From NCBI RefSeq assembly GCF_054482525.1, contig NZ_CM137006.1: DNA of 64,000 nucleotides; one strand, 5' to 3'. This document shows, in pieces, positions 378-48,618 of this stretch. Position 1 is the stretch's first letter; every line of letters begins with the position of its first letter. The position numbers and the translations under genes are program-made. The notes below the pieces were generated by a model that did not search any database, was not told where the DNA came from, and worked only from the letters and a program-made list of their open reading frames with translations.

Positions 378-3266
378 ATGCCCCGCAGCACTTGGTTCAA
401 AGCATTATTGTTGTTTGTTGCCCTTTGGGCACCCTTAAGTCAGGCAGAAACGGGATGGCAGCCGATTCAGGAAACCATCCGTAAAAGTGATAAAGATAAC
501 CGCCAGTATCAGGCTATACGTCTGGATAACGGTATGGTGGTCTTGCTGGTTTCTGATCCGCAGGCGGTTAAATCGCTCTCGGCGCTGGTGGTGCCCGTTG
601 GGTCGCTGGAAGATCCTGAGGCGTACCAGGGGCTGGCACATTACCTTGAACATATGAGTCTGATGGGGTCGAAAAAGTACCCGCAGGCTGACAGTCTGGC
701 CGAATATCTCAAAATGCACGGCGGGAGTCACAATGCCAGCACGGCACCGTATCGCACGGCTTTCTATCTGGAAGTTGAGAACGACGCCTTGCCCGGTGCG
801 GTAGACCGCCTGGCGGACGCTATTGCAGAACCCTTGCTCGACAAGAAATACGCCGAACGTGAGCGTAATGCAGTGAATGCCGAATTAACCATGGCGCGTA
901 CGCGTGATGGGATGCGCATGGCACAGGTCAGTGCAGAAACCATTAACCCGGCACATCCCGGTTCAAAGTTTTCTGGTGGTAACCTCGAAACTTTAAGCGA
1001 CAAACCCGGAAATCCGGTGCAGCAGGCGCTGAAAGATTTTCACGAGAAATATTACTCTGCCAATCTGATGAAGGCGGTTATTTACAGCATTAAACCGTTG
1101 CCGGAGTTGGCAAAAATGGCGGCGGACACCTTTGGTCGCGTGCCGAACAAAGAGAGCAAAAAACCGGAAATCACCGTGCCGGTAGTCACCGACGCGCAAA
1201 AGGGCATTATCATTCATTACGTCCCGGCGCTGCCGCGTAAAGTTCTGCGCGTTGAGTTTCGCATCGATAACAATTCAGCGAAGTTCCGTAGTAAAACGGA
1301 TGAATTGATTACCTATCTGATCGGTAATCGCAGCCCAGGTACACTTTCTGACTGGCTGCAAAAGCAGGGATTAGTTGAGGGCATTAGCGCCAATTCCGAT
1401 CCTATCGTCAACGGCAACAGCGGCGTATTAGCGATCTCTGCGTCTTTAACCGATAAAGGTCTGGCGAATCGCGATCAGGTTGTGGCGGCCATTTTTAGCT
1501 ACCTCAATCTGTTACGCGAAAAAGGGATTGATAAACAATACTTCGATGAACTGGCGAATGTGCTGGATATCGACTTTCGTTATCCGTCAATCACCCGTGA
1601 TATGGATTACGTCGAATGGCTGGCAGATACCATGATTCGCGTTCCTGTTGAGCATACGCTGGATGCAGTCAATATTGCCGATCGGTACGACGCTAAAGCA
1701 GTAAAAGAACGCCTGGCGATGATGACGCCGCAGAATGCGCGTATCTGGTATATCAGCCCGAAAGAGCCGCACAACAAAACGGCTTACTTTGTCGATGCGC
1801 CGTATCAGGTCGATAAAATTAGCGCACAAACTTTCGCTGACTGGCAGAAAAAAGCCGCCGACATTGCGCTCTCTTTGCCAGAGCTTAACCCCTATATTCC
1901 TGACGATTTCTCGCTGATTAAGTCAGAGAAGAAATATGACCATCCAGAGCTTATTGTTGATGAGTCGAATCTGCGTGTGGTCTATGCGCCAAGCCGTTAT
2001 TTTTCCAGCGAACCCAAAGCTGATGTCAGCCTGATTTTGCGTAATCCGAAAGCCATGGATAGCGCCCGCAATCAGGTGATGTTTGCGCTCAATGATTATC
2101 TCGCAGGGCTGGCGCTTGATCAGTTAAGCAACCAGGCGTCGGTTGGTGGCATAAGTTTTTCCACCAACGCTAACAACGGCCTTATGGTTAATGCCAATGG
2201 TTACACCCAGCGCCTGCCGCAGCTGTTCCAGGCATTGCTCGAGGGGTACTTTAGCTATACCGCTACGGAAGATCAGCTTGAGCAGGCGAAGTCCTGGTAT
2301 AACCAGATGATGGATTCCGCAGAAAAGGGCAAAGCGTTCGAGCAGGCGATTATGCCCGCGCAGATGCTCTCGCAAGTGCCGTACTTCTCGCGAGATGAAC
2401 GGCGCAAAATTTTGCCTTCAATCACTTTGAAAGAGGTGCTGGCCTATCGCGACGCCTTAAAATCAGGGGCTCGACCAGAGTTTATGGTTATTGGCAACAT
2501 GACCGAAGCCCAGGCAACAACGCTGGCACGCGATGTGCAAAAACAGTTGGGCGCTGATGGTTCGGAGTGGTGTCGTAACAAAGATGTCGTGGTCGATAAA
2601 AAACAATCTGTCATCTTTGAAAAAGCCGGTAACAGCACCGACTCCGCACTGGCAGCGGTATTTGTACCGACTGGCTACGATGAATACACCAGCTCAGCCT
2701 ATAGCTCTCTGTTGGGGCAGATCGTACAGCCGTGGTTCTACAATCAGTTGCGTACCGAAGAACAGTTGGGCTATGCCGTGTTTGCGTTTCCAATGAGCGT
2801 GGGGCGTCAGTGGGGCATGGGCTTCCTGTTGCAAAGCAATGATAAACAGCCTTCATTCTTGTGGGAGCGTTACAAGGCGTTTTTCCCAACCGCAGAGGCA
2901 AAATTGCGGACGATGAAGCCAGAAGAGTTTGCGCAAATCCAGCAGGCGGTAATAACCCAGATGCTGCAGGCACCGCAAACGCTCGGCGAAGAAGCATCGA
3001 AGTTAAGTAAAGATTTCGATCGCGGCAATATGCGCTTCGATTCGCGTGATAAAATCGTGGCCCAGATAAAACTGCTGACGCCGCAAAAACTTGCTGATTT
3101 CTTCCATCAGGCGGTGGTCGAGCCGCAAGGCATGGCTATTCTGTCGCAGATTTCCGGCAGCCAGAACGGGAAAGCCGAATATGTGCATCCTGAAGGCTGG
3201 AAAGTGTGGGAGAACGTCAGCGCGTTGCAGCAAACAATGCCCCTGATGAGTGAAAAGAATGAGTGA
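378..3266 (+). CDS. ptrA: Protease III (pitrilysin), periplasmic zinc metalloprotease
   Basis: 962 aa ORF; N-terminal signal peptide; HxxEH inverted zinc motif (HYLEH); position between recC and recB. Confidence 0.95.
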   Translation: MPRSTWFKALLLFVALWAPLSQAETGWQPIQETIRKSDKDNRQYQAIRLDNGMVVLLVSDPQAVKSLSALVVPVGSLEDPEAYQGLAHYLEHMSLMGSKKYPQADSLAEYLKMHGGSHNASTAPYRTAFYLEVENDALPGAVDRLADAIAEPLLDKKYAERERNAVNAELTMARTRDGMRMAQVSAETINPAHPGSKFSGGNLETLSDKPGNPVQQALKDFHEKYYSANLMKAVIYSIKPLPELAKMAADTFGRVPNKESKKPEITVPVVTDAQKGIIIHYVPALPRKVLRVEFRIDNNSAKFRSKTDELITYLIGNRSPGTLSDWLQKQGLVEGISANSDPIVNGNSGVLAISASLTDKGLANRDQVVAAIFSYLNLLREKGIDKQYFDELANVLDIDFRYPSITRDMDYVEWLADTMIRVPVEHTLDAVNIADRYDAKAVKERLAMMTPQNARIWYISPKEPHNKTAYFVDAPYQVDKISAQTFADWQKKAADIALSLPELNPYIPDDFSLIKSEKKYDHPELIVDESNLRVVYAPSRYFSSEPKADVSLILRNPKAMDSARNQVMFALNDYLAGLALDQLSNQASVGGISFSTNANNGLMVNANGYTQRLPQLFQALLEGYFSYTATEDQLEQAKSWYNQMMDSAEKGKAFEQAIMPAQMLSQVPYFSRDERRKILPSITLKEVLAYRDALKSGARPEFMVIGNMTEAQATTLARDVQKQLGADGSEWCRNKDVVVDKKQSVIFEKAGNSTDSALAAVFVPTGYDEYTSSAYSSLLGQIVQPWFYNQLRTEEQLGYAVFAFPMSVGRQWGMGFLLQSNDKQPSFLWERYKAFFPTAEAKLRTMKPEEFAQIQQAVITQMLQAPQTLGEEASKLSKDFDRGNMRFDSRDKIVAQIKLLTPQKLADFFHQAVVEPQGMAILSQISGSQNGKAEYVHPEGWKVWENVSALQQTMPLMSEKNE

Positions 3267-6200
3267 TGTCGCCGAGACATTAGATCCTTTGCGCTTGCCC
3301 TTACAGGGCGAGCGCCTGATTGAAGCCTCTGCCGGCACAGGCAAAACCTTTACGATTGCGGCGCTCTATTTGCGCCTGTTACTTGGACTAGGCGGTTCTG
3401 CCGCCTTTCCCCGCCCGCTGACCGTTGAAGAACTGCTGGTGGTCACCTTTACCGAGGCTGCCACGGCAGAATTGCGCGGTCGTATCCGTAGCAATATCCA
3501 CGAGTTGCGCATCGCCTGTCTGCGTGAAACCACCGACAATCCACTGTACGAACGCCTACTGGAAGAGATCGACGATAAAGCGCAAGCCGCGCAGTGGTTG
3601 TTGTTAGCCGAACGGCAGATGGATGAAGCGGCAGTCTTTACTATTCACGGTTTTTGCCAGCGCATGCTCAACCTGAATGCCTTTGAATCCGGCATGCTGT
3701 TTGAGCAGCAGCTGATTGAAGATGAGTCTCTGCTACGCTACCAGGCCTGCGCCGATTTCTGGCGTCGCTACTGCTACCCGCTGCCGCGTGAAATTGCCCA
3801 GGTCGTCTTTGAAACCTGGAAAGGACCGCAGGCGTTGCTGCGCGATATTAATCGTTATCTGCAAGGCGAAGCGCCGGTTATCAAAGCGCCGCCGCCCGAT
3901 GATGAAACGCTGGCTTCCCGCCACGCGCAAATTGTGGCGCGTATTGATACGGTAAAACAGCAGTGGCGCGACGCGGTGGGTGAACTGGATGCGCTGATCG
4001 AATCTTCTGGTATTGATCGACGCAAGTTTAACCGTAGCAATCAGGCTAAATGGATCGAGAAGATCAGCGCCTGGGCAGAAGAAGAGACCAACAGTTATCA
4101 GTTGCCAGAGTCGCTGGAAAAATTCTCTCAGCGTTTCTTAGAAGATCGCACGAAAGCCGGGGGGGAAACCCCGCGACATCCACTGTTTGAGGCGATCGAT
4201 CAACTGCTTGCAGAACCATTGTCGATCCGCGATCTGGTGATCACCCGCGCATTGGCTGAGATCCGCGAAACAGTAGCGCGTGAAAAACGCCGCCGTGGCG
4301 AATTGGGTTTTGATGACATGTTAAGTCGGCTCGATTCCGCGCTGCGTAGCGAAAGCGGCGAGGTGTTGGCAGCGGCGATCCGTACGCGATTCCCGGTGGC
4401 AATGATCGATGAATTTCAGGATACCGACCCCCAGCAGTACCGAATTTTTCGCCGTATCTGGCACCATCAGCCGGAAACCGCATTGTTGCTGATTGGCGAC
4501 CCGAAACAGGCCATTTATGCATTCCGGGGTGCGGATATCTTCACTTATATGAAGGCGCGTAGCGAAGTTCACGCCCACTACACTTTAGACACCAACTGGC
4601 GTTCCGCACCAGGAATGGTGAATAGTGTGAACAAGCTTTTCAGTCAGACTGATGACGCGTTCATGTTTCGCGAAATTCCTTTTATTCCAGTGAAATCAGC
4701 CGGGAAAAATCAGGCGTTACGTTTTGTCTTTAAAGGTGAAACGCAGCCTGCGATGAAAATGTGGCTGATGGAAGGCGAAAGCTGCGGCGTTGGCGACTAT
4801 CAAAGTACCATGGCGCAGGTATGTGCTGCGCAAATCCGCGACTGGCTACAAGCCGGACAGCGGGGCGAAGCGTTGCTGATGAACGGCGACGACGCGCGTC
4901 CGGTGCGTGCTTCGGACATCAGTGTGCTGGTGCGCAGCCGCCAGGAGGCCGCCCAGGTGCGCGACGCCTTAACGTTGCTGGAAATCCCTTCCGTTTACCT
5001 TTCGAACCGCGACAGTGTTTTTGAAACTCTGGAAGCGCAGGAAATGCTTTGGTTGTTGCAGGCGGTGATGACGCCCGAACGTGAGAACACCCTGCGTAGT
5101 GCGCTGGCAACGTCAATGATGGGGCTGAACGCGCTGGATATCGAAACGCTGAACAATGACGAACATGCGTGGGATGCGGTAGTCGAAGAGTTCGATGGTT
5201 ATCGGCAAATCTGGCGCAAACGTGGCGTTATGCCGATGCTGCGGGCGCTGATGTCGGCGCGTAACATTGCTGAAAACTTGCTGGCAACGGCAGGCGGTGA
5301 GCGGCGTCTTACCGATATCTTGCATATCAGCGAACTGCTACAAGAAGCCGGAACGCAGCTGGAAAGTGAACATGCGCTGGTACGCTGGTTATCGCAACAT
5401 ATCCTCGAGCCAGACAGTAATGCCTCCAGCCAACAAATGCGCCTCGAAAGTGATAAACATCTGGTGCAGATTGTCACGATCCATAAATCAAAAGGGCTGG
5501 AATATCCGCTGGTCTGGTTGCCATTTATTACCAATTTCCGCGTCCAGGATCAGGCGTTCTATCACGATCGCCACTCGTTTGAGGCTGTTCTGGATCTTAA
5601 TGCTGCGCCAGAAAGTGTCGATCTCGCGGAGGCCGAACGTCTGGCGGAAGATCTGCGTTTGCTTTACGTGGCGCTGACACGTTCGGTTTGGCATTGCAGT
5701 CTCGGCGTTGCACCGCTGGTGCGCCGTCGTGGCGATAAAAAAGGTGACACCGACGTCCACCAAAGTGCGCTCGGGCGTTTGCTGCAAAAAGGGGAACCGC
5801 AAGATGCGGCAGGGCTTCGCACCTGTATTGAAGCGTTATGCGATGATGATATTGCCTGGCAAACGGCACAAACGGGTGATAACCAGCCCTGGCAGGTTAA
5901 TGATGCTTTAACTGCAGAACTGAATGCGAGGACGCTACAACGATTGCCCGGCGATAACTGGCGTGTCACCAGCTACTCCGGTTTGCAGCAGCGTGGTCAC
6001 GGTATCGCTCAGGATCTGATGCCACGGCTGGATGTTGATGCCGCAGGCGTGGTCAGCGTCGTTGAAGAACCGACGTTAACACCGCATCAGTTCCCGCGCG
6101 GTGCGTCACCAGGGACATTCTTGCACAGTTTGTTTGAAGACCTCGATTTTACCCAGCCGGTTGACCCGAACTGGGTACAGGAAAAACTGGAACTCGGCGG

Positions 6201-6801
6201 CTTTGAATCGCAGTGGGAACCGGTGTTGACCGAGTGGATCACGGCTGTCCTCCAGGCACCTCTCAATGAAACGGGTGTTAGCCTGAGTCAGCTTTCCGAC
6301 CGCGATAAACAGGTGGAGATGGAGTTTTACCTGCCGATTAGTGAACCGCTCATCGCCAGCCAGCTTGATGCACTAATTCGCCAGTTTGATCCGCTATCCG
6401 CTGGCTGCCCGCCGCTGGAGTTCATGCAGGTACGCGGCATGTTAAAAGGCTTTATCGACCTGGTATTCCGCCACGAAGGGCGTTATTACCTGCTCGACTA
6501 TAAATCCAACTGGCTGGGTGAAGACAGTTCGGCTTACACCCAACAGGCTATGGCAGCGGCGATGCAGGCACACCGCTATGATCTGCAATATCAGCTTTAT
6601 ACCCTGGCGCTGCATCGTTATCTGCGCCATCGCATTGCTGATTACGACTATGATCGTCACTTTGGCGGCGTTATCTATCTGTTCCTGCGTGGCGTTGATA
6701 AAGAACATCCGCAACAAGGGATTTACACAATCCGACCCAACGCCAGGTTGATTGACCTGATGGATGAGATGTTTGCCGGTATGACCCTGGAGGAGGCGTA
6801 A
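3259..6801 (+). CDS. recB: RecBCD helicase/nuclease subunit RecB
   Basis: 1180 aa from ATG at 3259 (ORF track extends 3 codons upstream from a GTG); Walker A AGTGKT; overlaps ptrA stop by 8 nt and recD start by 1 nt. Confidence 0.95.
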
Positions 6802-8627
6802 TGAAATTGCAAAAGCAATTACTGGAAGCTGTGGAGCACAAACAGCTACGCCCGCTGGATGTGCAATTTGCCCTGACCGTGGCGGGAGATGAACATCCTG
6901 CCGTCACCCTCGCGGCGGCACTGTTAAGTCATGATGCCGGAGAGGGACACGTCTGTTTGCCGCTTTCACGACTGGAAAATAATGAGGTGTCGCATCCGCT
7001 GTTGGCGACCTGTGTCAGTGAAATCGGTGAGCTACAAAATTGGGAAGAATGCTTGCTGGCTTCACAAGCGGTCAGCCGGGGAGATGAACCAACGCCGATG
7101 ATCCTCTGTGGCGATCGTCTTTATTTGAATCGCATGTGGTGTAACGAGCGCACAGTGGCACGCTTTTTCAACGAAGTGAATCATGCCATTGAGGTTGATG
7201 AAGCTCTACTGGCGCAAACCCTGGACAAACTTTTTCCAGTAAGCGATGAAATTAACTGGCAAAAAGTTGCGGCGGCAGTGGCGCTGACGCGGCGGATCTC
7301 GGTGATTTCCGGCGGCCCTGGCACCGGTAAAACGACCACCGTAGCGAAGTTGCTGGCAGCGTTAATTCAAATGGCAGACGGCGAACGCTGCCGTATCCGT
7401 CTGGCTGCACCAACGGGTAAAGCTGCCGCGCGCTTAACCGAATCTCTCGGCAAGGCTTTGCGACAGTTACCGCTGACCGATGAACAAAAGAAACGCATTC
7501 CGGAAGATGCCAGCACTTTGCACCGATTGCTGGGTGCGCAGCCGGGTAGCCAGCGTTTACGTCATCATGCCGGTAACCCGCTGCATCTTGATGTGCTGGT
7601 GGTAGATGAAGCGTCAATGATCGATCTGCCTATGATGTCGAGACTGATCGACGCCTTGCCCGATCATGCGCGAGTGATCTTTCTCGGCGATCGTGATCAA
7701 CTGGCTTCGGTTGAGGCTGGGGCAGTGCTGGGCGATATCTGCGCTTATGCCAATGCCGGCTTTACCGCCGAGCGTGCCGGGCAGTTGAGCCGCCTGACGG
7801 GAACTCACGTTCCGGCAGGAACTGGCACAGAAGCGGCATCTTTGCGCGACAGTCTCTGCCTGCTGCAAAAAAGCTATCGTTTCGGCAGCGATTCTGGCAT
7901 TGGTCAGTTAGCTGCGGCGATCAACCGTGGTGATAAAACGGCAGTGAAAACCGTTTTTCAGCAGGATTTTTCTGATATCGAAAAACGGCTTTTACAGAGC
8001 GGCGAAGATTATATTGCGATGCTTGAGGAAGCTCTTGCGGGTTACGGACGTTATCTGGATCTGCTGCAAGCGCGTGCCGAGCCGGATTTAATCATTCAGG
8101 CGTTTAATGAGTACCAGCTTTTGTGCGCCCTGCGGGAAGGGCCGTTTGGCGTGGCCGGACTGAATGAGCGAATTGAGCAGTTTATGCAACAGAAGCGCAA
8201 AATTCATCGTCATCCGCACTCTCGTTGGTACGAAGGCCGACCGGTGATGATTGCCCGTAATGACAGCGCGCTTGGGTTGTTTAATGGCGATATCGGTATT
8301 GCGCTGGATCGCGGGCAGGGGACGCGCGTTTGGTTTGCGATGCCGGACGGCAATATTAAGTCTGTGCAACCGAGCCGCCTGCCGGAGCACGAAACGACGT
8401 GGGCGATGACGGTACATAAATCGCAGGGATCGGAGTTCGACCATGCGGCGTTGATTTTACCGAGCCAACGCACGCCGGTAGTAACGCGAGAGCTGGTTTA
8501 CACCGCGGTGACCCGCGCGCGTCGCCGTCTGTCGCTGTATGCCGATGAGCGCATATTAAGTGCGGCAATCGCCACGCGCACTGAGCGGCGCAGTGGTCTG
8601 GCGGCATTGTTTAGTTCGCGGGAATAA
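6801..8627 (+). CDS. recD: RecBCD helicase subunit RecD
   Basis: 608 aa; Walker [10 protein letters not shown]; start overlaps recB stop (TAATG). Confidence 0.95.
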
Positions 8628-11579: not shown

Positions 11580-11656
<77 letters not shown>

Positions 11657-11688
11657 TCACCGTACTGCTTTATTTCATCAAATTTGAT

Positions 11689-11765
<77 letters not shown>

Positions 11766-11798
11766 TCACCGTACTGCTTTACTTCATCAAATTTTAAT

Positions 11799-11875
<77 letters not shown>

Positions 11876-14113: not shown

Positions 14114-14557
14114 TTAAACCTGCTTCGCCACAGCGATAATCGCCTCGCTTAACGCATTCAACCCTTGGCTGCGTGAGGCGCTAAGCTGCGCACGCAATCC
14201 CAGCTCATCAAACAATGCCAGCGGCGACTGTGCCTGCAATTCGGCGGCGGTTTTCCCCTCAACGGCAGTCAACAACACCGCCAGCAGGCCGCGCACAATG
14301 CGCCCTTCGCTGTCGCCAAAGAAGTGCATTTTACCGTTTTCAGCCACGGTATATCCCAGCCAGACGCGGTTTTCGCATCCGGCAATCTCTTTAGCCTGCG
14401 CTTTTAACTCGTCTGGCAAAGCCGGAAGCTGTTTCCCCAGCATGATCAACTGGCGATATTTATCTTCCCATTGCGTCAACGGTGCGAAGGTATTGCGTAA
14501 CGTTTCTGCGGTTACGGTTGTGCCGAACGGATGTCCGGCGAATTGCGGGTTCGTCAT
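14114..14557 (-). CDS. csdE: Sulfur acceptor protein CsdE (SufE-like)
   Basis: 147 aa; SufE-family sequence; start overlaps csdA stop by 1 nt. Confidence 0.9.
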
Positions 14558-15762
14558 TAATCCACCAATAATTCCAGCGCGCGGTCAACGGCATTCACCA
14601 GCGCATCCACATCACTCTTTGTATTATATGGCGCAAAAGAGGCGCGCAGTGTGCCGGTTACGCCTAATTCTGCCAGTAGCGGCTGAGCGCAATGCTGCCC
14701 GGCCCGCAGGGCAATACCGTACTCCGCCAGCAGCGTCACCATATCGCTGTGATGAACGCCAGCAAAATCAAAGGCCAGCAGGCTGGAATCCTGGCAGCGA
14801 AATGAGCGGAAGCCAGGACGTTTTGCCAGCGCATCTTCCGCCAGCGTTGCTAAGCTACGGCTCCAGCTTTCGGCCTGGTTGATATCGTAATCTGCCAGCC
14901 ATTCCAGCGCCGCGCTTAATCCTATGACACCAGCGACATTTGGCGTTCCGGCTTCCAGTTTCCACGGCGCAGATTGAGTCGTGAAGCCGTCAAAACTCAC
15001 TTCGTGAATCATTTTGCCGCCACCCAGCCAGGGTGACATCGCTTCCAGCAGTTCTGATTTGCCATACAGCACGCCGATACCCGTCGGGCCATACAGTTTG
15101 TGACCAGAGAAAGCATAGAAATCAATATCCAGTTGCTGAACATCCGCAGGGAAATGCACCGCCCCCTGAGCACCATCAACCATCACCACCATCCCGGCTG
15201 AATGAGCAAAGGTAATCGCTCGTGCCAGACCCGGGCAACCGCCAGTCACGTTCGACATCTGACCCAACGCCAGAATCCGACTACGAGGAGTAATCAGTTC
15301 CGGCAACAAATCGACATCTGGCAACCGCTGCGCATTAAGCGGCAATTTCACCACTTTGGCTCCCGTTTGTTGGGCGACCATCAGCCAGGGGACAAGGTTG
15401 GCGTGGTGTTCTGCCACGCTGACAATAATCTCATCGCCCGGTTGCAGACGCGGACGCGCATAGCATTGTGCCACCATGTTGATGGATTCAGTGGTGCCGC
15501 GCGTCCAGACGATAGTTTTATCATCCGGTGCATTCAGTAATTGCGCCACTTTCTCTCGTGCAGCTTCATAACGCGCGGTCAGGCGTTGGGCTTCGGCAAA
15601 CTGGCTGCGATGGACGTTTCCGGCGCTCAGGCTGTAAAACTGTCGAGTGGCTTCAACCACGGCTTCAGGTTTAAGCGCGGTCGCGGCGCTGTCGAGATAG
15701 ACGCCCGCATCCTGAAGTGCGGGAAACTGGGCGCGAAACTGCGCGGGATTAAAAACGTTCAT
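14557..15762 (-). CDS. csdA: Cysteine desulfurase CsdA (PLP-dependent)
   Basis: 401 aa from ATG at 15762 with GAGGAG Shine-Dalgarno (ORF track extends 12 codons further); class V aminotransferase motifs. Confidence 0.92.
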
Positions 15763-16197: not shown

Positions 16198-16403
16198 AAA
16201 AAAAAGCACCGCAATTAGGCGGTGCTACATTAATCACTATGGACAGACAGGGTAAATGTACAGGAAGTGAAAAAAGGTAGCTTTGCTACCATGGTCTGAA
16301 TCGCAGACCAATTGCAAACACAACAACACAACATCACAACCGTAAGCCAAAAGTTCACCAGAACACGCATTCCGATAAAACTTTTCGTTCCGGCTCAGGA
16401 AGT
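16198..16403 (-). ncRNA. gcvB: GcvB small regulatory RNA (Hfq-dependent, represses amino-acid/peptide transporters)
   Basis: 206-nt sequence recognised (5' ACTTCCTGAGCCGGAACGAAAAGTTTTATCGG... 3' GCACCGCCTAATTGCGGTGCTTTTTTTT on minus strand); G/U-rich target-binding regions; intrinsic terminator; divergent from gcvA. Confidence 0.9.
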
Positions 16404-17467: not shown

Positions 17468-17863
17468 ATGACCAGCCGTTTTATGCTGATTTTCGCCGCC
17501 ATTAGCGGCTTCATTTTTGTGGCTCTGGGCGCTTTTGGCGCGCATGTGTTAAGTAAAACCATGGGGGCCGTTGAGATGGGCTGGATCCAGACCGGTCTCG
17601 AATATCAGGCGTTCCATACGCTGGCGATCTTAGGTCTGGCGGTGGCAATGCAGCGTCGCATCAGTATCTGGTTTTACTGGAGTAGCGTTTTCCTCGCGTT
17701 AGGCACGGTGCTGTTCAGCGGCAGCCTTTATTGCCTGGCGCTGTCCCATCTGCGTTTGTGGGCATTTGTCACACCGGTTGGCGGCGTGAGCTTCCTCGCG
17801 GGCTGGGCGTTAATGTTAGTTGGTGCTATCCGTTTAAAGCGCAAGGGCGTAAGTCATGAATAA
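17468..17863 (+). CDS. ygdD: DUF423 inner membrane protein
   Basis: 131 aa, 4 predicted TM helices; overlaps rlmM start by 8 nt. Confidence 0.85.
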
Positions 17864-19788: not shown

Positions 19789-20211
19789 TTACGGTGTTAC
19801 CCCTTTTTTTAAAAGAATATTCCCGTACTTCGCTCGTTCGCCTGTGATAACGATCGCAAAGGCTTTTTGCGCCCGTTCATAAAACGCAAAACGATTGATG
19901 CGGATGATGTCAGGACAGGGGGCTTGTAGTGAAAGCGCATTACGATAACGTCGTTCTACTTCAGGATCGAGAGTGTCACCTTCTACCGCCGCCATCATCA
20001 CCAGCGGCGGGGCATAACTGTCCAGTTCAAATAACGGGATTATTGCCTGGAGCAAGTCGCTCACCAACAGGCCATCAGCGCGGATCACCTGCGGTCCCAT
20101 CGAATGGGCGGGAAAGTGAGCATCGGAAAAAATAATTTCATCTCCATGTCCCATCTCTGCCAGCACTTTCAATAGTTCGGGAGAAATTAACGGCGAAATT
20201 GTTTTCAGCAT
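19789..20211 (-). CDS. fucU: L-fucose mutarotase
   Basis: 140 aa; RbsD/FucU family; between fucK and fucR. Confidence 0.92.
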
Positions 20212-20212
20212 T

Positions 20213-21631
20213 TCACACTTCCTCTATAAATTCAGGTTCAGTTTGCGGGTAGAAATAACGGTACTGATAATGAATCTGTGCGCGGGCTTCTTCCGGGCTG
20301 TTAAATTCCCCTACGCCATACCAACCGAACAGCGCAGCTCCTGCGACGGTCGTTTCGGCGTCGTCGAGAACTTTTACCGGAATATCAAGCATATTGGCTT
20401 TAATCTGATTCCACAATGTGTTGCGACTTCCTCCACCGACTAACAATAATTCAGAGGCTTTAAAGTGCCCGATTTTTTCCAGCATCTGTAGATTGCGCTG
20501 TAATTGCGCAGTTAACCCTTCCAGCGCCGCGCGATAGAAATGCCCCCGCGTGGTATTAAGCGTCACTCCTTGCCAGCCAGCGTTCTGACACGACAATAAA
20601 TCACACTGCATTTTTACGCCATCCGCGCCAGGCGCGATCAGACGAGCTTCTTCAATCAACATTTGCCAGGGTGTTTCAGCCGTCCAGAACAGTTTTCTCA
20701 CCCATTCCAGCACGCCGGATGCCAGCCATTGCATACCTGGGTTATACAACCCTGCCTGGCTATCCAGTTCGCAGGTGGAACCGGCGTACTGACTTAACAG
20801 CGAAGTATCAACCTGGGCGCTACGGACCATTAAAATTTCCCATGTACCGGAAGAGAGCACGGGTTCATTTTGTTCGGCACCAGCGCCAAAAAGGGCGAAC
20901 TGGGTATCGTGACCTGCGGAAATCACCGGTATGCCAACGGGTAAGCCGAGCATTCCTGCGGCGCTGTTCTGTAACGTACCAATCTGTTCACCCGCTTCCA
21001 CCAGACGAGGGAAGAGTCGGCGTGGAATACCGGTGGCTTGTAAAATTTGCGGACTGAAATCGCGTTGCTGGATATCCAGCATCTGGCTGGTTCCGGCCAT
21101 CGTGATATCAGTAGTGAATTCGCCGGTTAAACGGTGGTTAATCAGCGACGAAATAAAGAGCCAGGCGTGCGCGCGTTCCAGCAGTTGTGGATGATTTTCT
21201 TTCAACCACACCAACTTATATAACGTATTGAAACTAAAGGCTCCGACTCCAGAAATAGCCTGCAACTGCTGTGCGGAGATCAACCGTTCAATATTGTCCA
21301 TTACCGCTGCTGTTCGCGGACATTTCCAGCTAATGATCGGATAGAGCAGATTGCCTTGCTTATCTACCAGAGCGCCATCCACACCAAAGGTGGTGACGGC
21401 GATACCGCGGATGTGGCATTCAGTCAGTTCACTATTGATTTGCCGACAGCAATCAGCAAAGCGTTGCAAAATGGCGTCTAAAGACCACTGGTGCCAGGTG
21501 GTGTTTTCCATCGCGATATCGCTGGCATTAGGCGTTGAGGCGCGGGCAACAATTTTTCCCTGCCGATTAACCGCGATGGCCCTGACATTGGTCGCGCCAC
21601 AGTCGAGTACCAGGATAACTTCTTGTTTCAT
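20213..21631 (-). CDS. fucK: L-fuculokinase (FGGY family)
   Basis: 472 aa from ATG at 21631 with AGGAG Shine-Dalgarno; ORF track extension to 21661 starts at TTG and is probably not used. Confidence 0.92.
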
Positions 21632-34619: not shown

Positions 34620-34988
34620 TTCGTCGACAGGGAGTCAGACAACGAAGTGAACATCAGGATGATGACACTTCTGAAGGACACACCAGGATGGTGTTTCAGG
34701 GAAAGGCTTCTGGATGAAGCGAAGAGGATGACGCAGGACGCGTTAAAGGACACCTCCAGGATGGAGAATGAGAACCGGTCAGGATGATTCGGTGGGTCAG
34801 GAAGGCCAGGGACACTTCAGGATGAAGTATCACATCGGGGTGGTGTGAGCAGGAAGCAATAGTTCAGGATGAACGATTGGCCGCAAGGCCAGAGGAAAAG
34901 TTGTCAAGGATGAGCAGGGAGCAACAAAAGTAGCTGGAATGCTGCGAAACGAACCGGGAGCACTGTGAATACAGTGCTCCCTTTTTTT
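34620..34988 (+). ncRNA. csrB: CsrB small RNA (CsrA-sequestering sRNA)
   Basis: About 369 nt with roughly 20 GGA-containing motifs (CAGGAUG/AGGA) in predicted loops; ends in GGGAGCACTGTGAATACAGTGCTCCC hairpin plus T7 terminator; 5' end approximate. Confidence 0.9.
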
Positions 34989-35033
34989 ATTCCTGCTATC
35001 CTTCGCGGCAGTTTTTCTTATTGAGGTTGCTTT

Positions 35034-35363
35034 ATGACCACTCATGACCGCGTTCGTCTCCAGTTGCAGGCGCTTGAAGCGTTACTGCGTGAACATCAGC
35101 ACTGGCGAAACGATGAACCCCAGCCGCATCAATTTAACAGTACCCAACCGTTCTTTATGGACACCATGGAACCACTGGAGTGGTTGCAGTGGGTGCTTAT
35201 TCCGCGAATGCACGATTTGTTAGATAACAACCAGCCGTTACCGGGCGCTTTTGCCGTTGCTCCCTATTATGAAATGGCGCTGGCGACGGACCATCCGCAA
35301 CGCGCGCTTATTCTGGCTGAGCTGGAAAAACTGGATGCTCTTTTTGCGGATGATGCGAGCTAA
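35034..35363 (+). CDS. yqcC: DUF446 protein
   Basis: 109 aa; 1-nt overlap with truC start. Confidence 0.85.
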   Translation: MTTHDRVRLQLQALEALLREHQHWRNDEPQPHQFNSTQPFFMDTMEPLEWLQWVLIPRMHDLLDNNQPLPGAFAVAPYYEMALATDHPQRALILAELEKLDALFADDAS

Positions 35364-36145
35364 TGCTGGAAATACTCTATCAGGATGAATGGCTGGTTGC
35401 GGTAAATAAACCCTCCGGCTGGCTGGTTCACCGCAGCTGGCTGGATCGCGACGAGAAAGTAGTGGTCATGCAAACCGTGCGTGACCAGATAGGACAGCAT
35501 GTTTTTACTGCTCATCGTCTGGACCGACCCACTTCTGGTGTGTTGTTGATGGGATTATCCAGCGAGGCCGGACGGCTGCTGGCACAACAGTTTGAACAGC
35601 ACCAAATCCAGAAACGTTACCATGCGATTGTGCGCGGCTGGTTGATGGAAGAAGCGGTGCTGGATTATCCACTGGTGGAAGAACTGGACAAAATCGCTGA
35701 TAAATTTGCCCGCGAAGATAAAGGCCCGCAGCCAGCAGTGACGCATTACCGCGGTCTGGCGACCGTAGAAATGCCGGTAGCGACCGGACGTTACCCGACC
35801 ACGCGCTACGGCCTGGTGGAACTGGAGCCGAAAACCGGACGCAAACATCAGCTTCGCCGACATCTTGCCCATTTGCGCCACCCGATTATTGGCGATAGCA
35901 AACATGGCGATTTACGCCAGAATCGCAGCGGTGCTGAACATTTTGGTCTTCAGCGGTTAATGCTGCATGCCAGTCAGTTGTCATTGACGCATCCTTTTAC
36001 TGGCGAGCCGCTGACTATTCACGCGGGCCTGGACGACACCTGGATGCAGGCGTTATCACAATTTGGCTGGCGCGGTCTGCTTCCTGAAAATGAAAGGGTT
36101 GAGTTCAGTGCGCCATCGGGTCAGGATGGAGAGATAAGTTCCTAA
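35363..36145 (+). CDS. truC: tRNA pseudouridine(65) synthase
   Basis: 260 aa; RluA-family motif (HRLDRPTSG). Confidence 0.92.
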
Positions 36146-37046: not shown

Positions 37047-38399
37047 ATGAGTTCTTTAAGTCAGGCTGCGAGCAGTGTGGAAAAACGCACGAATGCTCGT
37101 TACTGGATAGTGGTGATGTTGTTTATCGTCACATCCTTCAACTACGGCGACCGCGCTACGCTCTCTATCGCCGGTTCGGAAATGGCCAAAGATATCGGCC
37201 TTGATCCTGTGGGAATGGGCTATGTGTTCTCTGCTTTCTCATGGGCTTATGTTATCGGGCAGATCCCTGGTGGCTGGTTGCTGGACCGTTTTGGTTCAAA
37301 ACGCGTCTACTTCTGGTCGATCTTTATCTGGTCGATGTTTACCTTGCTGCAAGGCTTCGTCGATATTTTTAGTGGATTCGGCATTATCGTTGCCCTGTTT
37401 ACGCTGCGCTTCCTGGTCGGGCTTGCTGAAGCGCCATCTTTCCCCGGTAACAGTCGCATTGTAGCGGCCTGGTTTCCGGCGCAGGAAAGGGGAACGGCGG
37501 TGTCGATTTTTAACTCCGCTCAATACTTCGCAACGGTGATCTTCGCGCCGATTATGGGCTGGCTGACGCATGAAGTGGGCTGGTCACACGTCTTTTTCTT
37601 TATGGGCGGTCTGGGCATTGTCATCAGCTTTATCTGGTTGAAAGTCATCCACGAGCCAAATCAACATCCGGGTGTAAATCAGAAAGAGCTGGAGTACATC
37701 GCTGCGGGTGGCGCGCTGATCAATATGGATCAGCAAAACACCAAAGTTAAAGTACCGTTCAGCGTGAAGTGGGGGCAGATCAAACAGCTGCTCGGGTCAC
37801 GGATGATGATCGGCGTTTATATCGGTCAGTACTGTATCAACGCCCTGACTTACTTCTTTATTACCTGGTTCCCGGTTTATCTGGTGCAGGCGCGCGGGAT
37901 GTCGATTCTTAAAGCGGGCTTTGTGGCTTCCGTTCCGGCGGTTTGCGGTTTTATCGGCGGTGTGCTGGGTGGGATTATTTCCGACTGGCTGATGCGCCGC
38001 ACGGGATCGCTGAACATTGCGCGTAAAACACCGATCGTAATGGGCATGTTGCTGTCGATGGTGATGGTGTTCTGCAACTACGTCAACGTTGAGTGGATGA
38101 TCATCGGCTTTATGGCGCTGGCCTTCTTCGGTAAGGGCATCGGGGCGCTGGGTTGGGCAGTAATGGCAGATACCGCGCCAAAAGAGATCAGCGGTCTTTC
38201 CGGTGGCCTGTTCAACATGTTCGGTAACATTTCTGGCATCGTCACGCCAATCGCAATTGGTTATATCGTTGGCACGACTGGCTCCTTTAATGGGGCGCTG
38301 ATTTATGTTGGTGTTCATGCCTTAATCGCGGTACTGAGCTACCTGGTGCTGGTGGGCGATATCAAGCGTATCGAGCTGAAACCTGTCGCGGGGCAATAA
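37047..38399 (+). CDS. gudP: Glucarate/galactarate transporter (MFS)
   Basis: 450 aa, 12 TM; first gene of gudPXD. Confidence 0.93.
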
Positions 38400-38400
38400 G

Positions 38401-39741
38401 ATGACGACACAATCCAGTCCTGTTATTACTGATATGAAAGTCATTCCGGTCGCCGGGCACGATAGCATGTTGCTTAATATTGGTGGGGCGCATAACGCAT
38501 ATTTCACTCGCAATATTGTGGTACTCACCGATAACGCCGGGCATACCGGCATTGGTGAAGCGCCAGGCGGAGAGGTGATTTATCAGACGCTTGTCGATGC
38601 TATTCCGATGGTTCTGGGCCAGGAAGTTGCGCGCCTGAATAAAGTGGTCCAGCAGGTGCATAAAGGTAATCAGGCCGCCGATTTTGATACCTTCGGTAAA
38701 GGGGCCTGGACCTTTGAATTACGCGTTAACGCCGTGGCGGCGCTGGAAGCCGCCTTGCTTGACCTGCTAGGTAAGGCGCTGAATGTTCCGGTCTGCGAAC
38801 TGTTAGGGCCAGGTAAGCAACGCGAGGCTATTACCGTCCTCGGTTATCTGTTTTATATCGGTGATCGGACCAAAACCGATCTTCCTTATCTGGAAAATAC
38901 GCTGGGCAACCATGAGTGGTATCAGTTGCGCCATCAGAAAGCGATGAACAGCGAAGCCGTTGTGCGTCTGGCGGAAGCCTCACAGGATCGCTACGGCTTT
39001 AAAGATTTCAAACTTAAGGGCGGCGTGTTACCTGGCGAGCAAGAAATCGACACTGTTCGTGCATTGAAGAAACGCTTCCCGGATGCGCGGATTACCGTTG
39101 ATCCCAACGGTGCATGGCTGCTTGATGAAGCCATTTCTTTGTGCAAAGGGCTGAATGATGTTCTTACCTATGCCGAAGATCCATGCGGCGCAGAACAGGG
39201 CTTCTCCGGACGTGAAGTGATGGCGGAGTTTCGGCGGGCGACCGGCTTGCCCGTCGCGACTAACATGATCGCCACCAACTGGCGCGAAATGGGCCATGCG
39301 GTAATGCTCAATGCGGTGGATATTCCACTTGCCGATCCGCATTTCTGGACGCTTTCCGGTGCAGTCCGCGTGGCGCAGCTTTGCGACGACTGGGGGCTGA
39401 CCTGGGGCTGCCATTCCAATAACCACTTTGATATCTCTCTGGCGATGTTTACCCATGTGGGCGCGGCGGCACCGGGTAATCCCACCGCTATCGATACCCA
39501 CTGGATTTGGCAGGAGGGCGATTGTCGCCTGACCCGAAATCCGCTGGAGATTAAAAACGGAAAAATTGCCGTTCCTGATGCGCCCGGTCTGGGCGTGGAA
39601 CTGGACTGGGAACAGGTACAAAAGGCACATGAGGCCTATAAACGTCTGCCTGGCGGTGCGCGTAACGACGCAGGCCCGATGCAGTACCTGATCCCCGGCT
39701 GGACCTTTGACCGTAAACGTCCCGTTTTCGGCCGTCATTGA
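38401..39741 (+). CDS. gudX: Glucarate dehydratase-related protein (enolase superfamily paralog)
   Basis: 446 aa; paralog of downstream gudD. Confidence 0.92.
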
Positions 39742-45496: not shown

Positions 45497-47731
45497 ATGG
45501 TTGCGGTAAGAAGTGCACATATCAATAAGGCTGGTGAATTTGATCCGGAAAAATGGATCGCAAGTCTGGGTATTACCAGCCAGAAGTCGTGTGAGTGCTT
45601 AGCCGAAACCTGGGCGTATTGTCTGCAACAGACGCAGGGGCATCCGGATGCCAGTCTGTTATTGTGGCGTGGTGTTGAGATGGTGGAGATCCTCTCGACA
45701 TTAAGTATGGACATTGACACGCTGCGGGCGGCGCTGTTGTTCCCTCTGGCCGATGCCAACGTAGTCAGCGAAGATGTGCTGCGTGAGAGCGTCGGTAAGT
45801 CGGTCGTTAACCTTATTCACGGCGTGCGTGATATGGCGGCGATCCGCCAGCTGAAAGCGACGCATACCGATTCTGTTTCCTCCGAACAGGTCGATAACGT
45901 TCGCCGGATGTTATTGGCGATGGTCGATGATTTTCGCTGCGTGGTCATCAAACTGGCAGAGCGTATTGCTCATCTGCGCGAAGTAAAAGATGCGCCGGAA
46001 GATGAACGTGTACTGGCGGCAAAAGAGTGCACCAATATCTACGCGCCGTTGGCGAACCGTCTTGGGATTGGGCAACTGAAATGGGAGCTGGAAGATTACT
46101 GCTTCCGTTATCTCCACCCGACCGAATACAAACGCATCGCAAAACTGCTGCATGAACGCCGTCTCGACCGCGAACACTATATCGAAGAGTTTGTCGGCCA
46201 TCTGCGCGCTGAGATGAAAGCTGAAGGCGTTAAAGCTGAAGTGTATGGTCGACCGAAACACATCTACAGCATCTGGCGCAAAATGCAGAAAAAGAACCTC
46301 GCCTTCGATGAGCTGTTTGATGTGCGTGCGGTACGTATTGTCGCCGAGCGTTTACAGGATTGTTATGCCGCACTGGGGATAGTGCACACTCACTATCGCC
46401 ACCTGCCGGATGAGTTTGACGATTACGTCGCTAACCCGAAACCAAACGGTTATCAGTCTATTCATACCGTGGTTCTGGGACCGGGTGGAAAAACCGTTGA
46501 GATCCAAATCCGCACTAAACAGATGCATGAAGATGCAGAGTTGGGTGTTGCTGCGCACTGGAAATATAAAGAGGGCGCGGCAGCTGGCGGCGCACGTTCG
46601 GGACATGAAGACCGGATTGCCTGGCTGCGTAAACTGATTGCGTGGCAGGAAGAGATGGCTGATTCCGGCGAAATGCTCGACGAAGTACGTAGCCAGGTCT
46701 TTGACGACCGGGTGTACGTCTTTACGCCGAAAGGTGATGTCGTTGATTTGCCTGCGGGATCAACACCGCTGGACTTCGCTTACCACATCCACAGTGATGT
46801 CGGACACCGCTGCATCGGGGCAAAAATTGGCGGGCGCATTGTGCCGTTCACCTACCAGCTGCAGATGGGCGACCAGATTGAAATTATCACCCAGAAACAG
46901 CCGAACCCCAGCCGTGACTGGTTAAACCCAAACCTCGGTTACGTCACAACCAGCCGTGGGCGTTCGAAAATTCACGCCTGGTTCCGTAAACAGGACCGTG
47001 ACAAAAACGTTCTGGCTGGGCGGCAAATCCTTGACGACGAGCTGGAACATCTGGGGATCAGCCTGAAAGAAGCAGAAAAACATCTGCTGCCGCGTTACAA
47101 CTTCAATGATGTCGACGAGTTGCTGGCGGCGATTGGTGGCGGGGATATCCGTCTCAATCAGATGGTGAACTTCCTGCAATCGCAATTTAATAAGCCGAGT
47201 GCCGAAGAGCAGGACGCCGCCGCGCTGAAGCAACTTCAGCAAAAAAGCTACACGCCGCAAAACCGCAGTAAAGATAACGGTCGAGTGGTAGTAGAAGGTG
47301 TCGGTAACCTGATGCACCACATCGCGCGCTGCTGCCAGCCGATCCCTGGAGATGAGATTGTCGGCTTCATTACCCAGGGACGCGGTATTTCAGTACACCG
47401 CGCCGATTGCGAACAACTGGCGGAACTGCGCTCCCATGCGCCAGAACGTATTGTTGATGCGGTATGGGGCGAGAGCTACTCCGCCGGATATTCGCTGGTG
47501 GTCCGCGTGGTGGCTAATGATCGTAGTGGGTTGTTACGTGATATCACGACCATTCTCGCCAATGAGCAAGTGAACGTGCTTGGCGTTGCCAGCCGTAGCG
47601 ATACCAAACAGCAACTGGCGACCATCGACATGACCATTGAGATTTACAACCTGCAAGTGCTGGGCCGCGTGCTGGGTAAACTCAACCAGGTGCCGGATGT
47701 TATCGACGCGCGTCGGTTGCACGGGAGTTAG
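45497..47731 (+). CDS. relA: GTP pyrophosphokinase, (p)ppGpp synthetase I
   Basis: 744 aa; sequence recognised. Confidence 0.95.
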   Translation: MVAVRSAHINKAGEFDPEKWIASLGITSQKSCECLAETWAYCLQQTQGHPDASLLLWRGVEMVEILSTLSMDIDTLRAALLFPLADANVVSEDVLRESVGKSVVNLIHGVRDMAAIRQLKATHTDSVSSEQVDNVRRMLLAMVDDFRCVVIKLAERIAHLREVKDAPEDERVLAAKECTNIYAPLANRLGIGQLKWELEDYCFRYLHPTEYKRIAKLLHERRLDREHYIEEFVGHLRAEMKAEGVKAEVYGRPKHIYSIWRKMQKKNLAFDELFDVRAVRIVAERLQDCYAALGIVHTHYRHLPDEFDDYVANPKPNGYQSIHTVVLGPGGKTVEIQIRTKQMHEDAELGVAAHWKYKEGAAAGGARSGHEDRIAWLRKLIAWQEEMADSGEMLDEVRSQVFDDRVYVFTPKGDVVDLPAGSTPLDFAYHIHSDVGHRCIGAKIGGRIVPFTYQLQMGDQIEIITQKQPNPSRDWLNPNLGYVTTSRGRSKIHAWFRKQDRDKNVLAGRQILDDELEHLGISLKEAEKHLLPRYNFNDVDELLAAIGGGDIRLNQMVNFLQSQFNKPSAEEQDAAALKQLQQKSYTPQNRSKDNGRVVVEGVGNLMHHIARCCQPIPGDEIVGFITQGRGISVHRADCEQLAELRSHAPERIVDAVWGESYSAGYSLVVRVVANDRSGLLRDITTILANEQVNVLGVASRSDTKQQLATIDMTIEIYNLQVLGRVLGKLNQVPDVIDARRLHGS

Positions 47732-47740
47732 TCTTACATA

Positions 47741-47781
47741 GCTGGATATGGCGTCAGCCGTATCCAGCGATATCTTTTACT
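47741..47781 (+). terminator. Putative relA-distal hairpin / terminator
   Basis: GCTGGATA-12 nt loop-TATCCAGC followed by U-rich GATATCTTTT. Confidence 0.4.
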
Positions 47782-47826
47782 CGAAGGTATTACACCTGAC
47801 AGACCCGCAATTTTCAGGACAATTCA

Positions 47827-48618
47827 ATGAATCAAATCGACCGTTTGCTCACTATTATGCAGCGCCTGCGCGATCCGGAAAACGGCTGCCCGTGGGATAA
47901 AGAGCAGACATTTGCCACCATTGCGCCTTACACCCTTGAAGAAACCTACGAAGTGCTGGACGCCATTGCCCGTGAAGATTTTGACGATCTGCGCGGTGAA
48001 CTCGGCGATCTGCTGTTCCAGGTGGTGTTTTACGCACAAATGGCCCAGGAAGAAGGGCGCTTTGACTTTAATGATATTTGCGCCGCGATCAGCGATAAAT
48101 TAGAACGTCGCCATCCGCATGTTTTTGCTGACAGTTCTGCCGAAAACAGTAGTGAAGTGCTTGCCCGTTGGGAGCAAATCAAAACCGAAGAGCGCGCGCA
48201 GAAAGCGCAGCATTCGGTGCTGGACGATATTCCTCGTAGTTTACCGGCTTTAATGCGTGCGCAAAAAATCCAGAAACGTTGCGCCAACGTTGGTTTTGAC
48301 TGGACGACGCTTGGCCCGGTAGTCGATAAAGTCTACGAAGAGATCGATGAGGTGATGTACGAAGCGCGGCAGGCTGTTGTCGACCAGGCTAAACTGGAGG
48401 AGGAAATGGGTGACCTGCTGTTTGCCACAGTCAATCTGGCTCGTCATTTAGGGACAAAAGCGGAAATCGCATTGCAAAAAGCGAACGAAAAATTCGAGCG
48501 TCGTTTTCGCGAAGTGGAGCGTATTGTTGCCGCGCGTGGACTGGAAATGACAGGTGTTGACCCCGAAACAATGGAAGAAGTCTGGCAACAGGTAAAACGG
48601 CAGGAAATTGATCTCTAA
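47827..48618 (+). CDS. mazG: Nucleoside triphosphate pyrophosphohydrolase MazG
   Basis: 263 aa; tandem MazG domains; immediately follows relA with no mazEF between. Confidence 0.93.
   Translation: MNQIDRLLTIMQRLRDPENGCPWDKEQTFATIAPYTLEETYEVLDAIAREDFDDLRGELGDLLFQVVFYAQMAQEEGRFDFNDICAAISDKLERRHPHVFADSSAENSSEVLARWEQIKTEERAQKAQHSVLDDIPRSLPALMRAQKIQKRCANVGFDWTTLGPVVDKVYEEIDEVMYEARQAVVDQAKLEEEMGDLLFATVNLARHLGTKAEIALQKANEKFERRFREVERIVAARGLEMTGVDPETMEEVWQQVKRQEIDL

Follow-up and report, generated by a model that had tools for sequence, protein, structure and literature searches.

Short unidirectional overlaps, in which a gene starts within or against the stop codon of its upstream neighbour, are a well-described feature of prokaryotic operons. 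Huber et al. (2019, 2023) have catalogued them in Escherichia coli K-12 and in 1,695 species, and the three most frequent spacing classes are -4 (ATGA), -1 (TAATG or TGATG) and -8. Translational coupling has been shown by experiment in E. coli pairs at -8, -4 and -1, and it drops steeply with distance. Native coupled pairs include hyfHI, astDB, ydbH/ynbE, menDH (these four at -4), trpBA and rplKA, which belong to the same spacing class as most junctions considered here and likewise have Shine-Dalgarno sequences that are intragenic and differ in strength. However, bioBF, the fifth native E. coli pair tested at -4, is not coupled, and spacing alone is thus no proof of coupling.

The closest described relatives of the main locus treated here are the recBCD operons. 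In operons with the order recC-recB-recD, for example in Pseudomonas syringae Lz4W, overlaps are found both at the recB start and between recB and recD, and the median spacing across prokaryotes is -4 for RecC to RecB (n = 258) as well as for RecB to RecD (n = 318). The Enterobacteriaceae differ in that ptrA, an unrelated gene encoding a periplasmic protease, overlaps the recB start, and in Serratia ptrA is likewise found upstream of recB and recD. In E. coli K-12, recC has been described as a separate operon and ptrA-recB-recD as polycistronic (PMC12342828). The same study reported control of RecB by Hfq through the ptrA-recB mRNA: deletion of a 36-nt Hfq-binding site doubled RecB translation efficiency, from 7.9 to 16.3 proteins per mRNA, and the recB ribosome-binding site was placed by the authors within ptrA (PMC12342828). 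RecB itself is scarce, a figure of 33-93 copies per cell being quoted second-hand.

Overlapping gene pairs in the window

The stretch analysed in its entirety (hereafter the window; 64,000 nt of contig NZ_CM137006.1, RefSeq assembly GCF_054482525.1) is an E. coli chromosome segment running from recC', through ptrA-recB-recD, to ygcN'. It is collinear with positions 4125983-4189982 of NZ_CP151009.1 and differs from them at 4 of its 64,000 nt, and this near-identity allows the PGAP annotation to be carried over one to one. Overlaps were scored with RefSeq starts, and the junctions were read straight from the window sequence. There are eight overlapping unidirectional pairs, defined as neighbours on the same strand in which the downstream start lies at or before the upstream stop. 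A preliminary description of this DNA had listed seven of them, each with an overlap length that proved exact, but had missed the 10-nt ygcN/ygcO overlap; it had also assigned the whole set to positions 3250-6810, an interval that holds only the two junctions of recB. Two pairs abutting at +1, fucK/fucU and gudP/gudX, had gone unlisted as well.

In window order, the eight spacings (-8, -1, -1, -8, -1, -23, -4 and -10) are identical to those in the published K-12 table (Huber et al., 2023). Every pair is already tabulated, the observation is already known, and the strain simply repeats the K-12 architecture. Nor is the window enriched relative to E. coli itself, since eight of its 35 same-strand CDS pairs are spaced at -8 to +6 nt when 8.3 would be expected (P(X≥8) = 0.61) from the published genome-wide figure of 707 such pairs in 2,987 (23.7%). 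These junctions are thus very probably of the ordinary operon kind, the commonest in E. coli, with the downstream start in or against the upstream stop, which places the downstream initiation region within the upstream reading frame. As textbook operon architecture they are of little importance overall. How far each downstream gene relies on upstream translation would vary by junction.

The ptrA/recB junction

ptrA (positions 378-3266, + strand), which encodes pitrilysin, runs from ATG to a single TGA and is the first cistron of ptrA-recB-recD; recC adjoins it from upstream at a distance of 175 nt. The statement of the preliminary description that ptrA is carried on the transcript of recBD agrees with the literature. 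The recB CDS (3259-6801, + strand) starts at the ATG at 3259, while the TGA of ptrA occupies 3264-3266, so that the two genes share 8 nt, ATGAGTGA (3259-3266, + strand).

Start assignment bears directly on whether such overlaps are real. It could be argued that some are annotation artefacts, the true downstream start lying elsewhere and the overlap being absent or different, and in the case of recB the longest open reading frame does begin further upstream, at an in-frame GTG at 3250 (the position from which the earlier interval had been counted). This GTG was rejected as a start because it is missing in most genera, being confined to Escherichia, the majority of Citrobacter and one of the two Salmonella loci, whereas the ATG is universal: in a survey of 80 Enterobacteriaceae species it was invariant (80/80). 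In the same 80 species, the ptrA to recB spacing is -4 in 45, -8 in 31, -20 in two, +2 in one and +413 in one. The overlap is therefore kept in 78 of 80 species, and the -8 form of E. coli is a minority.

Shine-Dalgarno pairing upstream of recB is almost nil, at -2.5 kcal/mol in the window and a median of -3.0 kcal/mol across the 80 species. Where the overlap has been lost it reaches -5.8 and -5.9 kcal/mol, although this concerns two species only and the group with a -4 spacing already has a median of -5.0 kcal/mol. With so little pairing, recB would probably be translated mainly, and inefficiently, by ribosomes that come over from ptrA, which would fit the very low level of RecB.

The counterpart of the 36-nt Hfq-binding region lies in the ptrA 5' untranslated region (328-363, + strand), as one match with 3 mismatches when none is expected by chance. 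The locus is the same as that studied in K-12 (PMC12342828), the evidence here being confined to sequence, namely a weak Shine-Dalgarno and a conserved overlap. Taken together, these features raise the possibility, which we hold tentatively and at somewhat less than even probability, that recB lacks a functional ribosome-binding site of its own and would be translated, inefficiently and exclusively, by ribosomes coming straight off ptrA. The inserted protease gene would then act as translational gatekeeper of RecB, having taken over a role that falls to recC in other bacteria, and obligatory coupling between ptrA and recB would, as part of this same tentative reading, be the route by which RecB copy number is set through Hfq binding to the ptrA leader. 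Such a role is consistent with the weak Shine-Dalgarno (median -3.0), with the overlap in 78/80 species and with the ancestral -4 junction between RecC and RecB. The effect of Hfq could also run via features of the mRNA other than ptrA translation.

The recB/recD junction

recB and recD meet in a TAATG (6799-6803, + strand), nucleotide 6801 being common to both genes. The recD CDS extends from 6801 to 8627 on the + strand, its RecD_N domain beginning at residue 12, and its start is preceded by a strong Shine-Dalgarno, GGAGGAGG (6789-6796, + strand; -12.1 kcal/mol), located within the last codons of recB. This organization is conserved: in the 79 loci of the survey that include this junction, the overlap is found in 79/79 species, at -4 in 70 and at -1, the form of E. 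coli, in a minority of nine. A strong Shine-Dalgarno is present in all 79 (median -9.8 kcal/mol), and the overlapping start is ATG, or GTG in three. In many recD orthologues another ATG follows 6 nt downstream, which might be taken to favour an annotation artefact; however, the recD alternatives still lie at spacings of +2 to +5. With such a Shine-Dalgarno recD could probably also initiate by itself, and its abutting on recB probably ties RecD synthesis to that of RecB within the RecBCD enzyme.

Conservation also bears on the simplest alternative, which is that gene packing and the turnover of stop and start codons have produced the overlaps as neutral side effects, with independent initiation and no functional coupling. 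Good internal Shine-Dalgarno sequences such as those of recD, ygcR and ygcO are what this account would predict, and RecB is still produced in P. syringae when recC is disrupted. Nevertheless, overlap has been kept at both junctions of recB (78/80 and 79/79) despite a shifting geometry (-8, -4 and -20 at the first, -1 and -4 at the second), as if selection had acted on the adjacency of the genes and not on the sequence, and neither recB nor truC has a usable Shine-Dalgarno from which to initiate independently.

The other junctions

csdA and csdE meet in a TAATG (14555-14559, - strand), with nucleotide 14557 common to both. The annotated csdE start is the only usable one, since a start at the next candidate, +78, would truncate the SufE domain. 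ygdD and rlmM share 8 nt by direct reading (17856-17863, + strand), and residue 1 of RlmM aligns to position 1 of the RlmM_FDX profile; the sole alternative start, a TTG at +15, would therefore truncate this Pfam domain. The third TAATG joins yqcC and truC (35361-35365, + strand; nucleotide 35363 is shared), and truC has no other start candidate in its open reading frame up to +90. Its Shine-Dalgarno is weak (-3.3 kcal/mol), and truC would, like recB, probably be translated mainly and inefficiently by ribosomes coming from the upstream gene.

In the ygc cluster, the overlap of ygcS with ygcR measures 23 nt (61119-61141, + strand), the ygcR ATG at 61119 following a GGAGG (-10.6 kcal/mol) from which self-initiation is probably also possible. 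ygcR and ygcQ, whose products are homologues of the beta and alpha subunits of electron transfer flavoprotein (ETF), overlap by 4 nt, ATGA (61895-61898, + strand). The 10-nt overlap of ygcN and ygcO (63745-63754, - strand) also stands at -10 in the published table (Huber et al., 2023). In the supplement of an INRI-seq study, the peaks given near the genes considered here appear to mark other initiation sites, not the annotated starts.

Other in-frame candidate starts do exist for ygcR (at spacings of -38, -35, -29 and +19) and ygcQ (-37 and +11), which speaks for an annotation artefact. Yet the ygcR ATG has a strong GGAGG in front of it, and for recD, csdE, rlmM and truC the open reading frame offers no start further upstream than the annotated one, with downstream alternatives absent or cutting conserved domains. 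In view of this, and of the universal recB ATG, it is most improbable that some of the overlaps arise from misplaced starts. Start reassignment, which had been named in advance as the result that would undo the overlaps, has not displaced them.

Possible coupling by spacing, reinitiation or RNA unfolding

A spacing at which coupling of the termination-reinitiation type works efficiently (about -8 to +6/+10 nt) is found at ptrA/recB, recB/recD, csdA/csdE, ygdD/rlmM, yqcC/truC and ygcR/ygcQ. ygcS/ygcR (-23) and ygcN/ygcO (-10) lie outside it, and 23 nt falls among the overlap lengths at which engineered constructs no longer showed coupling. The coupling of four of the five native -4 pairs tested in E. 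coli argues against purely neutral overlaps. On the other hand, depletion of the ribosome recycling factor leaves the ratios of downstream to upstream ribosome density unchanged, overlapping pairs included (Saito et al.), which favours de novo initiation. On balance we regard it as rather unlikely that packing and codon turnover explain the overlaps by themselves.

Coupling could also work by RNA unfolding. In the mechanism favoured by Saito et al. for coupled E. coli pairs, and documented in classic cases, the downstream ribosome-binding site is buried in a structure which opens only when a ribosome translates the upstream gene. In the predicted ygcR fold the GGAGG is indeed partly paired. 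However, 100-nt folds around seven junctions did not exceed shuffled sequences in stability (z between -1.5 and +0.65), short-window prediction from single sequences being a weak test, and in the predicted recB fold neither the AUG nor the purine-rich stretch is paired. RNA unfolding thus finds no support in these folds, which are no stronger than shuffles, and we consider it an improbable basis for coupling at these junctions.

Complexes and stoichiometry

The overlaps had originally been read as consistent with stoichiometric co-expression, an idea that makes sense only for products that form a complex. It fits RecB/RecD, CsdA/CsdE, whose complex has been solved (PDB 4LW4), and YgcR/YgcQ, which are complex-forming by homology only; among the window pairs, Huber et al. 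scored only recB/recD as a complex. It does not extend to ptrA/recB, ygdD/rlmM or ygcS/ygcR: PtrA is a protease of the periplasm that has no relation to RecB, YgdD a membrane protein, RlmM an rRNA methyltransferase and YgcS a transporter. For yqcC/truC there is no documented complex.

Closely spaced E. coli pairs are 4.5-fold enriched for complex subunits, which speaks against neutrality, but about 70% of them encode no complex, which speaks for it. In published medians at the level of orthologous groups (COGs) across prokaryotes, as far as these were accessible, complex-forming pairs of the ETF beta/alpha and CsdA/SufE types are usually non-overlapping (+11 and +9, respectively). This again favours a neutral origin, and it implies that overlap is not required for matched expression. 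Overlap alone is likewise no proof of equal protein amounts; in the part of one proteome data set consulted (Mori 2021), the CsdE:CsdA molar ratio is about 2.5:1 with the corrected values and about 1.0 with the uncorrected ones. A matched output would plausibly be of benefit only to RecB/RecD, CsdA/CsdE, YgcR/YgcQ and YgcN/YgcO, while in the remaining pairs the overlap is more likely to have come from tight operon packing.

Implications for RecBCD dosage

Where the junctions may matter is in the control of RecBCD, whose dosage is tightly limited and physiologically important. Translation of recB by ribosomes fed from ptrA would explain how RecB output can be set from an Hfq site in the ptrA leader. 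If RecB synthesis does depend on ptrA translation, this would account mechanistically for the published effect of Hfq and would give a reason why the ptrA-recB overlap has been kept across the Enterobacteriaceae. Deletions or insertions in ptrA or recB could then change the levels of RecB or RecD where they disturb the final codons of the gene upstream.

Gene content of the window

The window is collinear over its whole length with NZ_CP151009.1 (4125983-4189982), with 4 mismatches, and the RefSeq annotation of that genome is therefore valid base for base. The order is recC', ptrA-recB-recD, argA, amiC, three tandem tRNA-Met genes (11580-11875, minus strand), mltA, tcdA and csdE-csdA; then gcvA-ygdD-rlmM, the fuc genes, sdaCB, queF, syd, yqcC-truC-yqcA and the gud genes; and finally barA, rlmD-relA-mazG, pyrG-eno ... 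ygcW-ygcU-ygcS-ygcR-ygcQ and ygcP-ygcO-ygcN'. Two small RNAs are encoded, GcvB (16198-16403, minus), which is divergent from gcvA, and CsrB (34632-34991, plus), which lies within the 621-nt gap between syd and yqcC. A frameshifted pseudogene called by PGAP (52814-52955, minus) is found 13 nt upstream of ygcG. The mazEF toxin-antitoxin genes, which lie between relA and mazG in K-12, are missing from the junction (47732-47826) between relA (45497-47731) and mazG (47827-48618), which is likewise uninterrupted in 1,006 of 5,425 complete E. coli genomes and split in the remainder. A 4-kb query around recB, covering ptrA, recB and recD, found matches in 5,425 of 5,426 complete E. coli genomes.

Overlapping junctions and start codons

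Every same-strand junction in the window was extracted and read from the sequence. The seven overlaps listed in the preliminary description are all correct as sized: ptrA/recB (8 nt, 3259-3266, ATGAGTGA), recB/recD (1 nt, 6801, TAATG), csdA/csdE (1 nt, 14557, minus strand, TAATG), ygdD/rlmM (8 nt, 17856-17863), yqcC/truC (1 nt, 35363, TAATG), ygcS/ygcR (23 nt, 61119-61141) and ygcR/ygcQ (4 nt, 61895-61898, ATGA). That list omitted ygcN/ygcO, which overlap by 10 nt (63745-63754, minus), as well as fucK/fucU (20211-20213, minus) and gudP/gudX (38399-38401, plus), which are separated by a single nucleotide, a gap in the range held to be efficient for coupling (Huber et al. 2023). The octamer ATGAGTGA is present twice on the plus strand, 13 nt apart: the first copy (3246-3253) encodes Met-Ser-Glu near the PtrA C-terminus and the second (3259-3266) provides the recB start and the ptrA stop.

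Reassignment of start codons, which could move the starts away from the overlaps, was tested using a RecB scan with one genome per species, which yielded 80 Enterobacteriaceae loci (68-98% identity) whose junctions were anchored by tblastn. The interval first reported, 3250-6810, brackets recB alone and begins at the GTG opening the longest ORF, the annotated ATG being at 3259. This ATG is found in 80/80 species, and the in-frame GTG upstream of it is confined to Escherichia, most Citrobacter and one of the two Salmonella loci, so GTG 3250 was rejected as the recB start. Wherever the locus extends across the recB/recD junction (79 loci), the recD start overlaps. Neither recD, csdE, rlmM nor truC has a start candidate in the ORF upstream of its annotated ATG. 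Downstream, none was found within 90 nt for truC, and the next csdE candidate (+78) was rejected because the SufE domain would be cut into; the alignment of the RlmM ferredoxin-like domain pairs residue 1 with profile position 1. The ygcR and ygcQ starts are the least certain, because further in-frame candidates exist; the annotated ygcR ATG is preceded by a strong GGAGG (-10.6 kcal/mol).

Frequency of close spacing

In E. coli, 707 of 2,987 unidirectional pairs (24%) are spaced at -8 to +6 nt (negative values being overlaps), the classes ranking -4 > -1 > -8 in frequency (Huber et al. 2023). The window has 35 same-strand CDS pairs, of which 8 lie in this range, against 8.3 expected (P(X>=8) = 0.61); close spacing here is not unusual and is typical of the genome. 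Each window pair is present with identical spacing in the K-12 supplementary table of Huber et al. (2023), where only recB/recD is flagged as encoding a complex. The observation, confirmed here, had thus already been published in full; being known and typical of the genome, the feature is of little interest in itself.

Proposed stoichiometric co-expression

The overlaps had been taken as consistent with stoichiometric co-expression, a proposal that would hold for a minority of them. RecB/RecD is a reasonable case, as are CsdA/CsdE, whose complex has been solved (4LW4), and YgcR/YgcQ, homologues of ETF beta/alpha; the proposal does not fit ptrA/recB, ygdD/rlmM or ygcS/ygcR. YgcN/YgcO, which resemble FixC/FixX, are a reasonable case too, FixC->FixX-type pairs having a median spacing of -3.3 nt in published cross-species data. 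YqcC (35034-35363, plus) matches Pfam DUF446, described there as 'tRNA pseudouridine synthase C', which suggests that yqcC may be linked, functionally or physically, to truC; the two genes overlap at the yqcC stop and truC start. In one proteome source the molar ratio of CsdE to CsdA is ~2.5 with the profiling correction and ~1.0 without it.

Several published findings bear on the proposal. Median spacings in the same cross-species data are +11 for ETF beta->alpha pairs (n=1,661) and +9 for CsdA->SufE-type pairs; ~70% of closely spaced E. coli pairs do not encode a complex (Huber et al. 2023); one tested -4 pair was uncoupled (Huber et al. 2019); coupling in engineered constructs was lost at -25 (2025 review), which casts doubt on ygcS/ygcR (-23); and P. 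syringae still produces RecB when recC is disrupted. Overlap is therefore neither necessary nor sufficient for stoichiometric co-expression.

Possible coupling at the recB and recD starts

The first interpretation is supported in part, translational coupling being plausible. The field is divided on how coupling operates where it occurs, by facilitated de novo initiation or by re-initiation: termination-reinitiation is favoured by Huber et al. (2019, 2023) and opposed by Saito et al., who see no effect of RRF depletion, and a 2025 review leaves both modes open. Predicted 100-nt folds at seven junctions did not exceed shuffled sequence in stability (z -1.5 to +0.65) and the AUG region is unpaired in the recB fold, so that the predictions lend no support to a ribosome-binding site locked until upstream ribosomes open it.

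Shine-Dalgarno (SD) strength in the window, calculated as the pairing energy with the 3' end of 16S rRNA in kcal/mol, is -2.5 (recB), -3.3 (truC), -4.9 (csdE), -5.2 (rlmM), -5.4 (ygcQ), -6.9 (ygcO), -10.6 (ygcR) and -12.1 (recD), the functional cut-off of Huber et al. (2019) being -3.5 kcal/mol. Across the 80 species the recB SD has a median of -3.0 and is weaker than -3.5 in 61%; for recD the median is -9.8, with every species at -3.5 or stronger. The strong internal SD at the abutting recD start should yield efficient initiation, coupled or independent, which would keep RecD from limiting the enzyme.

ptrA/recB spacing is -4 (ATGA) in 45 of the 80 species, -8 in 31, -20 in two, +2 in one and +413 in one, and recB/recD spacing is -4 in 70 of 79 and -1 in nine, so that the E. 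coli forms (-8 and -1) are in the minority across Enterobacteriaceae. The PtrA tail is one residue shorter in lineages with the -4 spacing. Overlap is kept in 78/80 and 79/79 species, respectively, although its geometry was altered several times, which is the best argument here for selection on juxtaposition rather than on a particular sequence. Only Intestinirhabdus alba (scan locus L019), with a 413-nt spacer ~413 nt upstream of locus position 6001, and Enterobacteriaceae bacterium RIT714 (L067), with a spacing of +2 near locus position 6001, lack the ptrA/recB overlap. In E. coli E69 (L074; CP089930.1, complete chromosome; 4872-6869) the RecB match stops at residue 666, the end of the extracted locus, which could reflect a recB interruption or the limit of that locus.

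In line with this, RecC->RecB (n=258) and RecB->RecD (n=318) pairs both have a median of -4 (q1 -4, q3 -1) in the published COG-pair table, and a description of P. syringae recCBD speaks of 'three overlapping reading frames'; both junctions of the ancestral operon were therefore overlapping. Enterobacteriaceae have ptrA, regarded in the literature as an insertion, between recC and recB, and it is likewise upstream of recB and recD in Serratia. The recB start thus overlaps the ptrA stop in this family, whereas recC holds that upstream place in other bacteria.

Because of its near-absent SD and conserved overlap, recB would probably depend for its translation on ribosomes finishing ptrA, and be translated inefficiently. 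This would be consistent with the <10 RecBCD molecules per cell and ~8 proteins per mRNA reported for E. coli (PMC12342828); a second-hand figure is 33-93 RecB per cell. Deletion of the Hfq site in the ptrA leader, whose counterpart is at 328-363 in the window, doubles RecB translation efficiency (PMC12342828), and ptrA-dependent recB translation would be a simple reading of this effect. What is mildly new is comparative only: across Enterobacteriaceae the overlap at the recB start has been kept though the upstream partner is ptrA and not recC, and recB lacks an SD of its own. Together, these two features make obligatory ptrA->recB coupling a candidate, and testable, explanation of the published Hfq effect.
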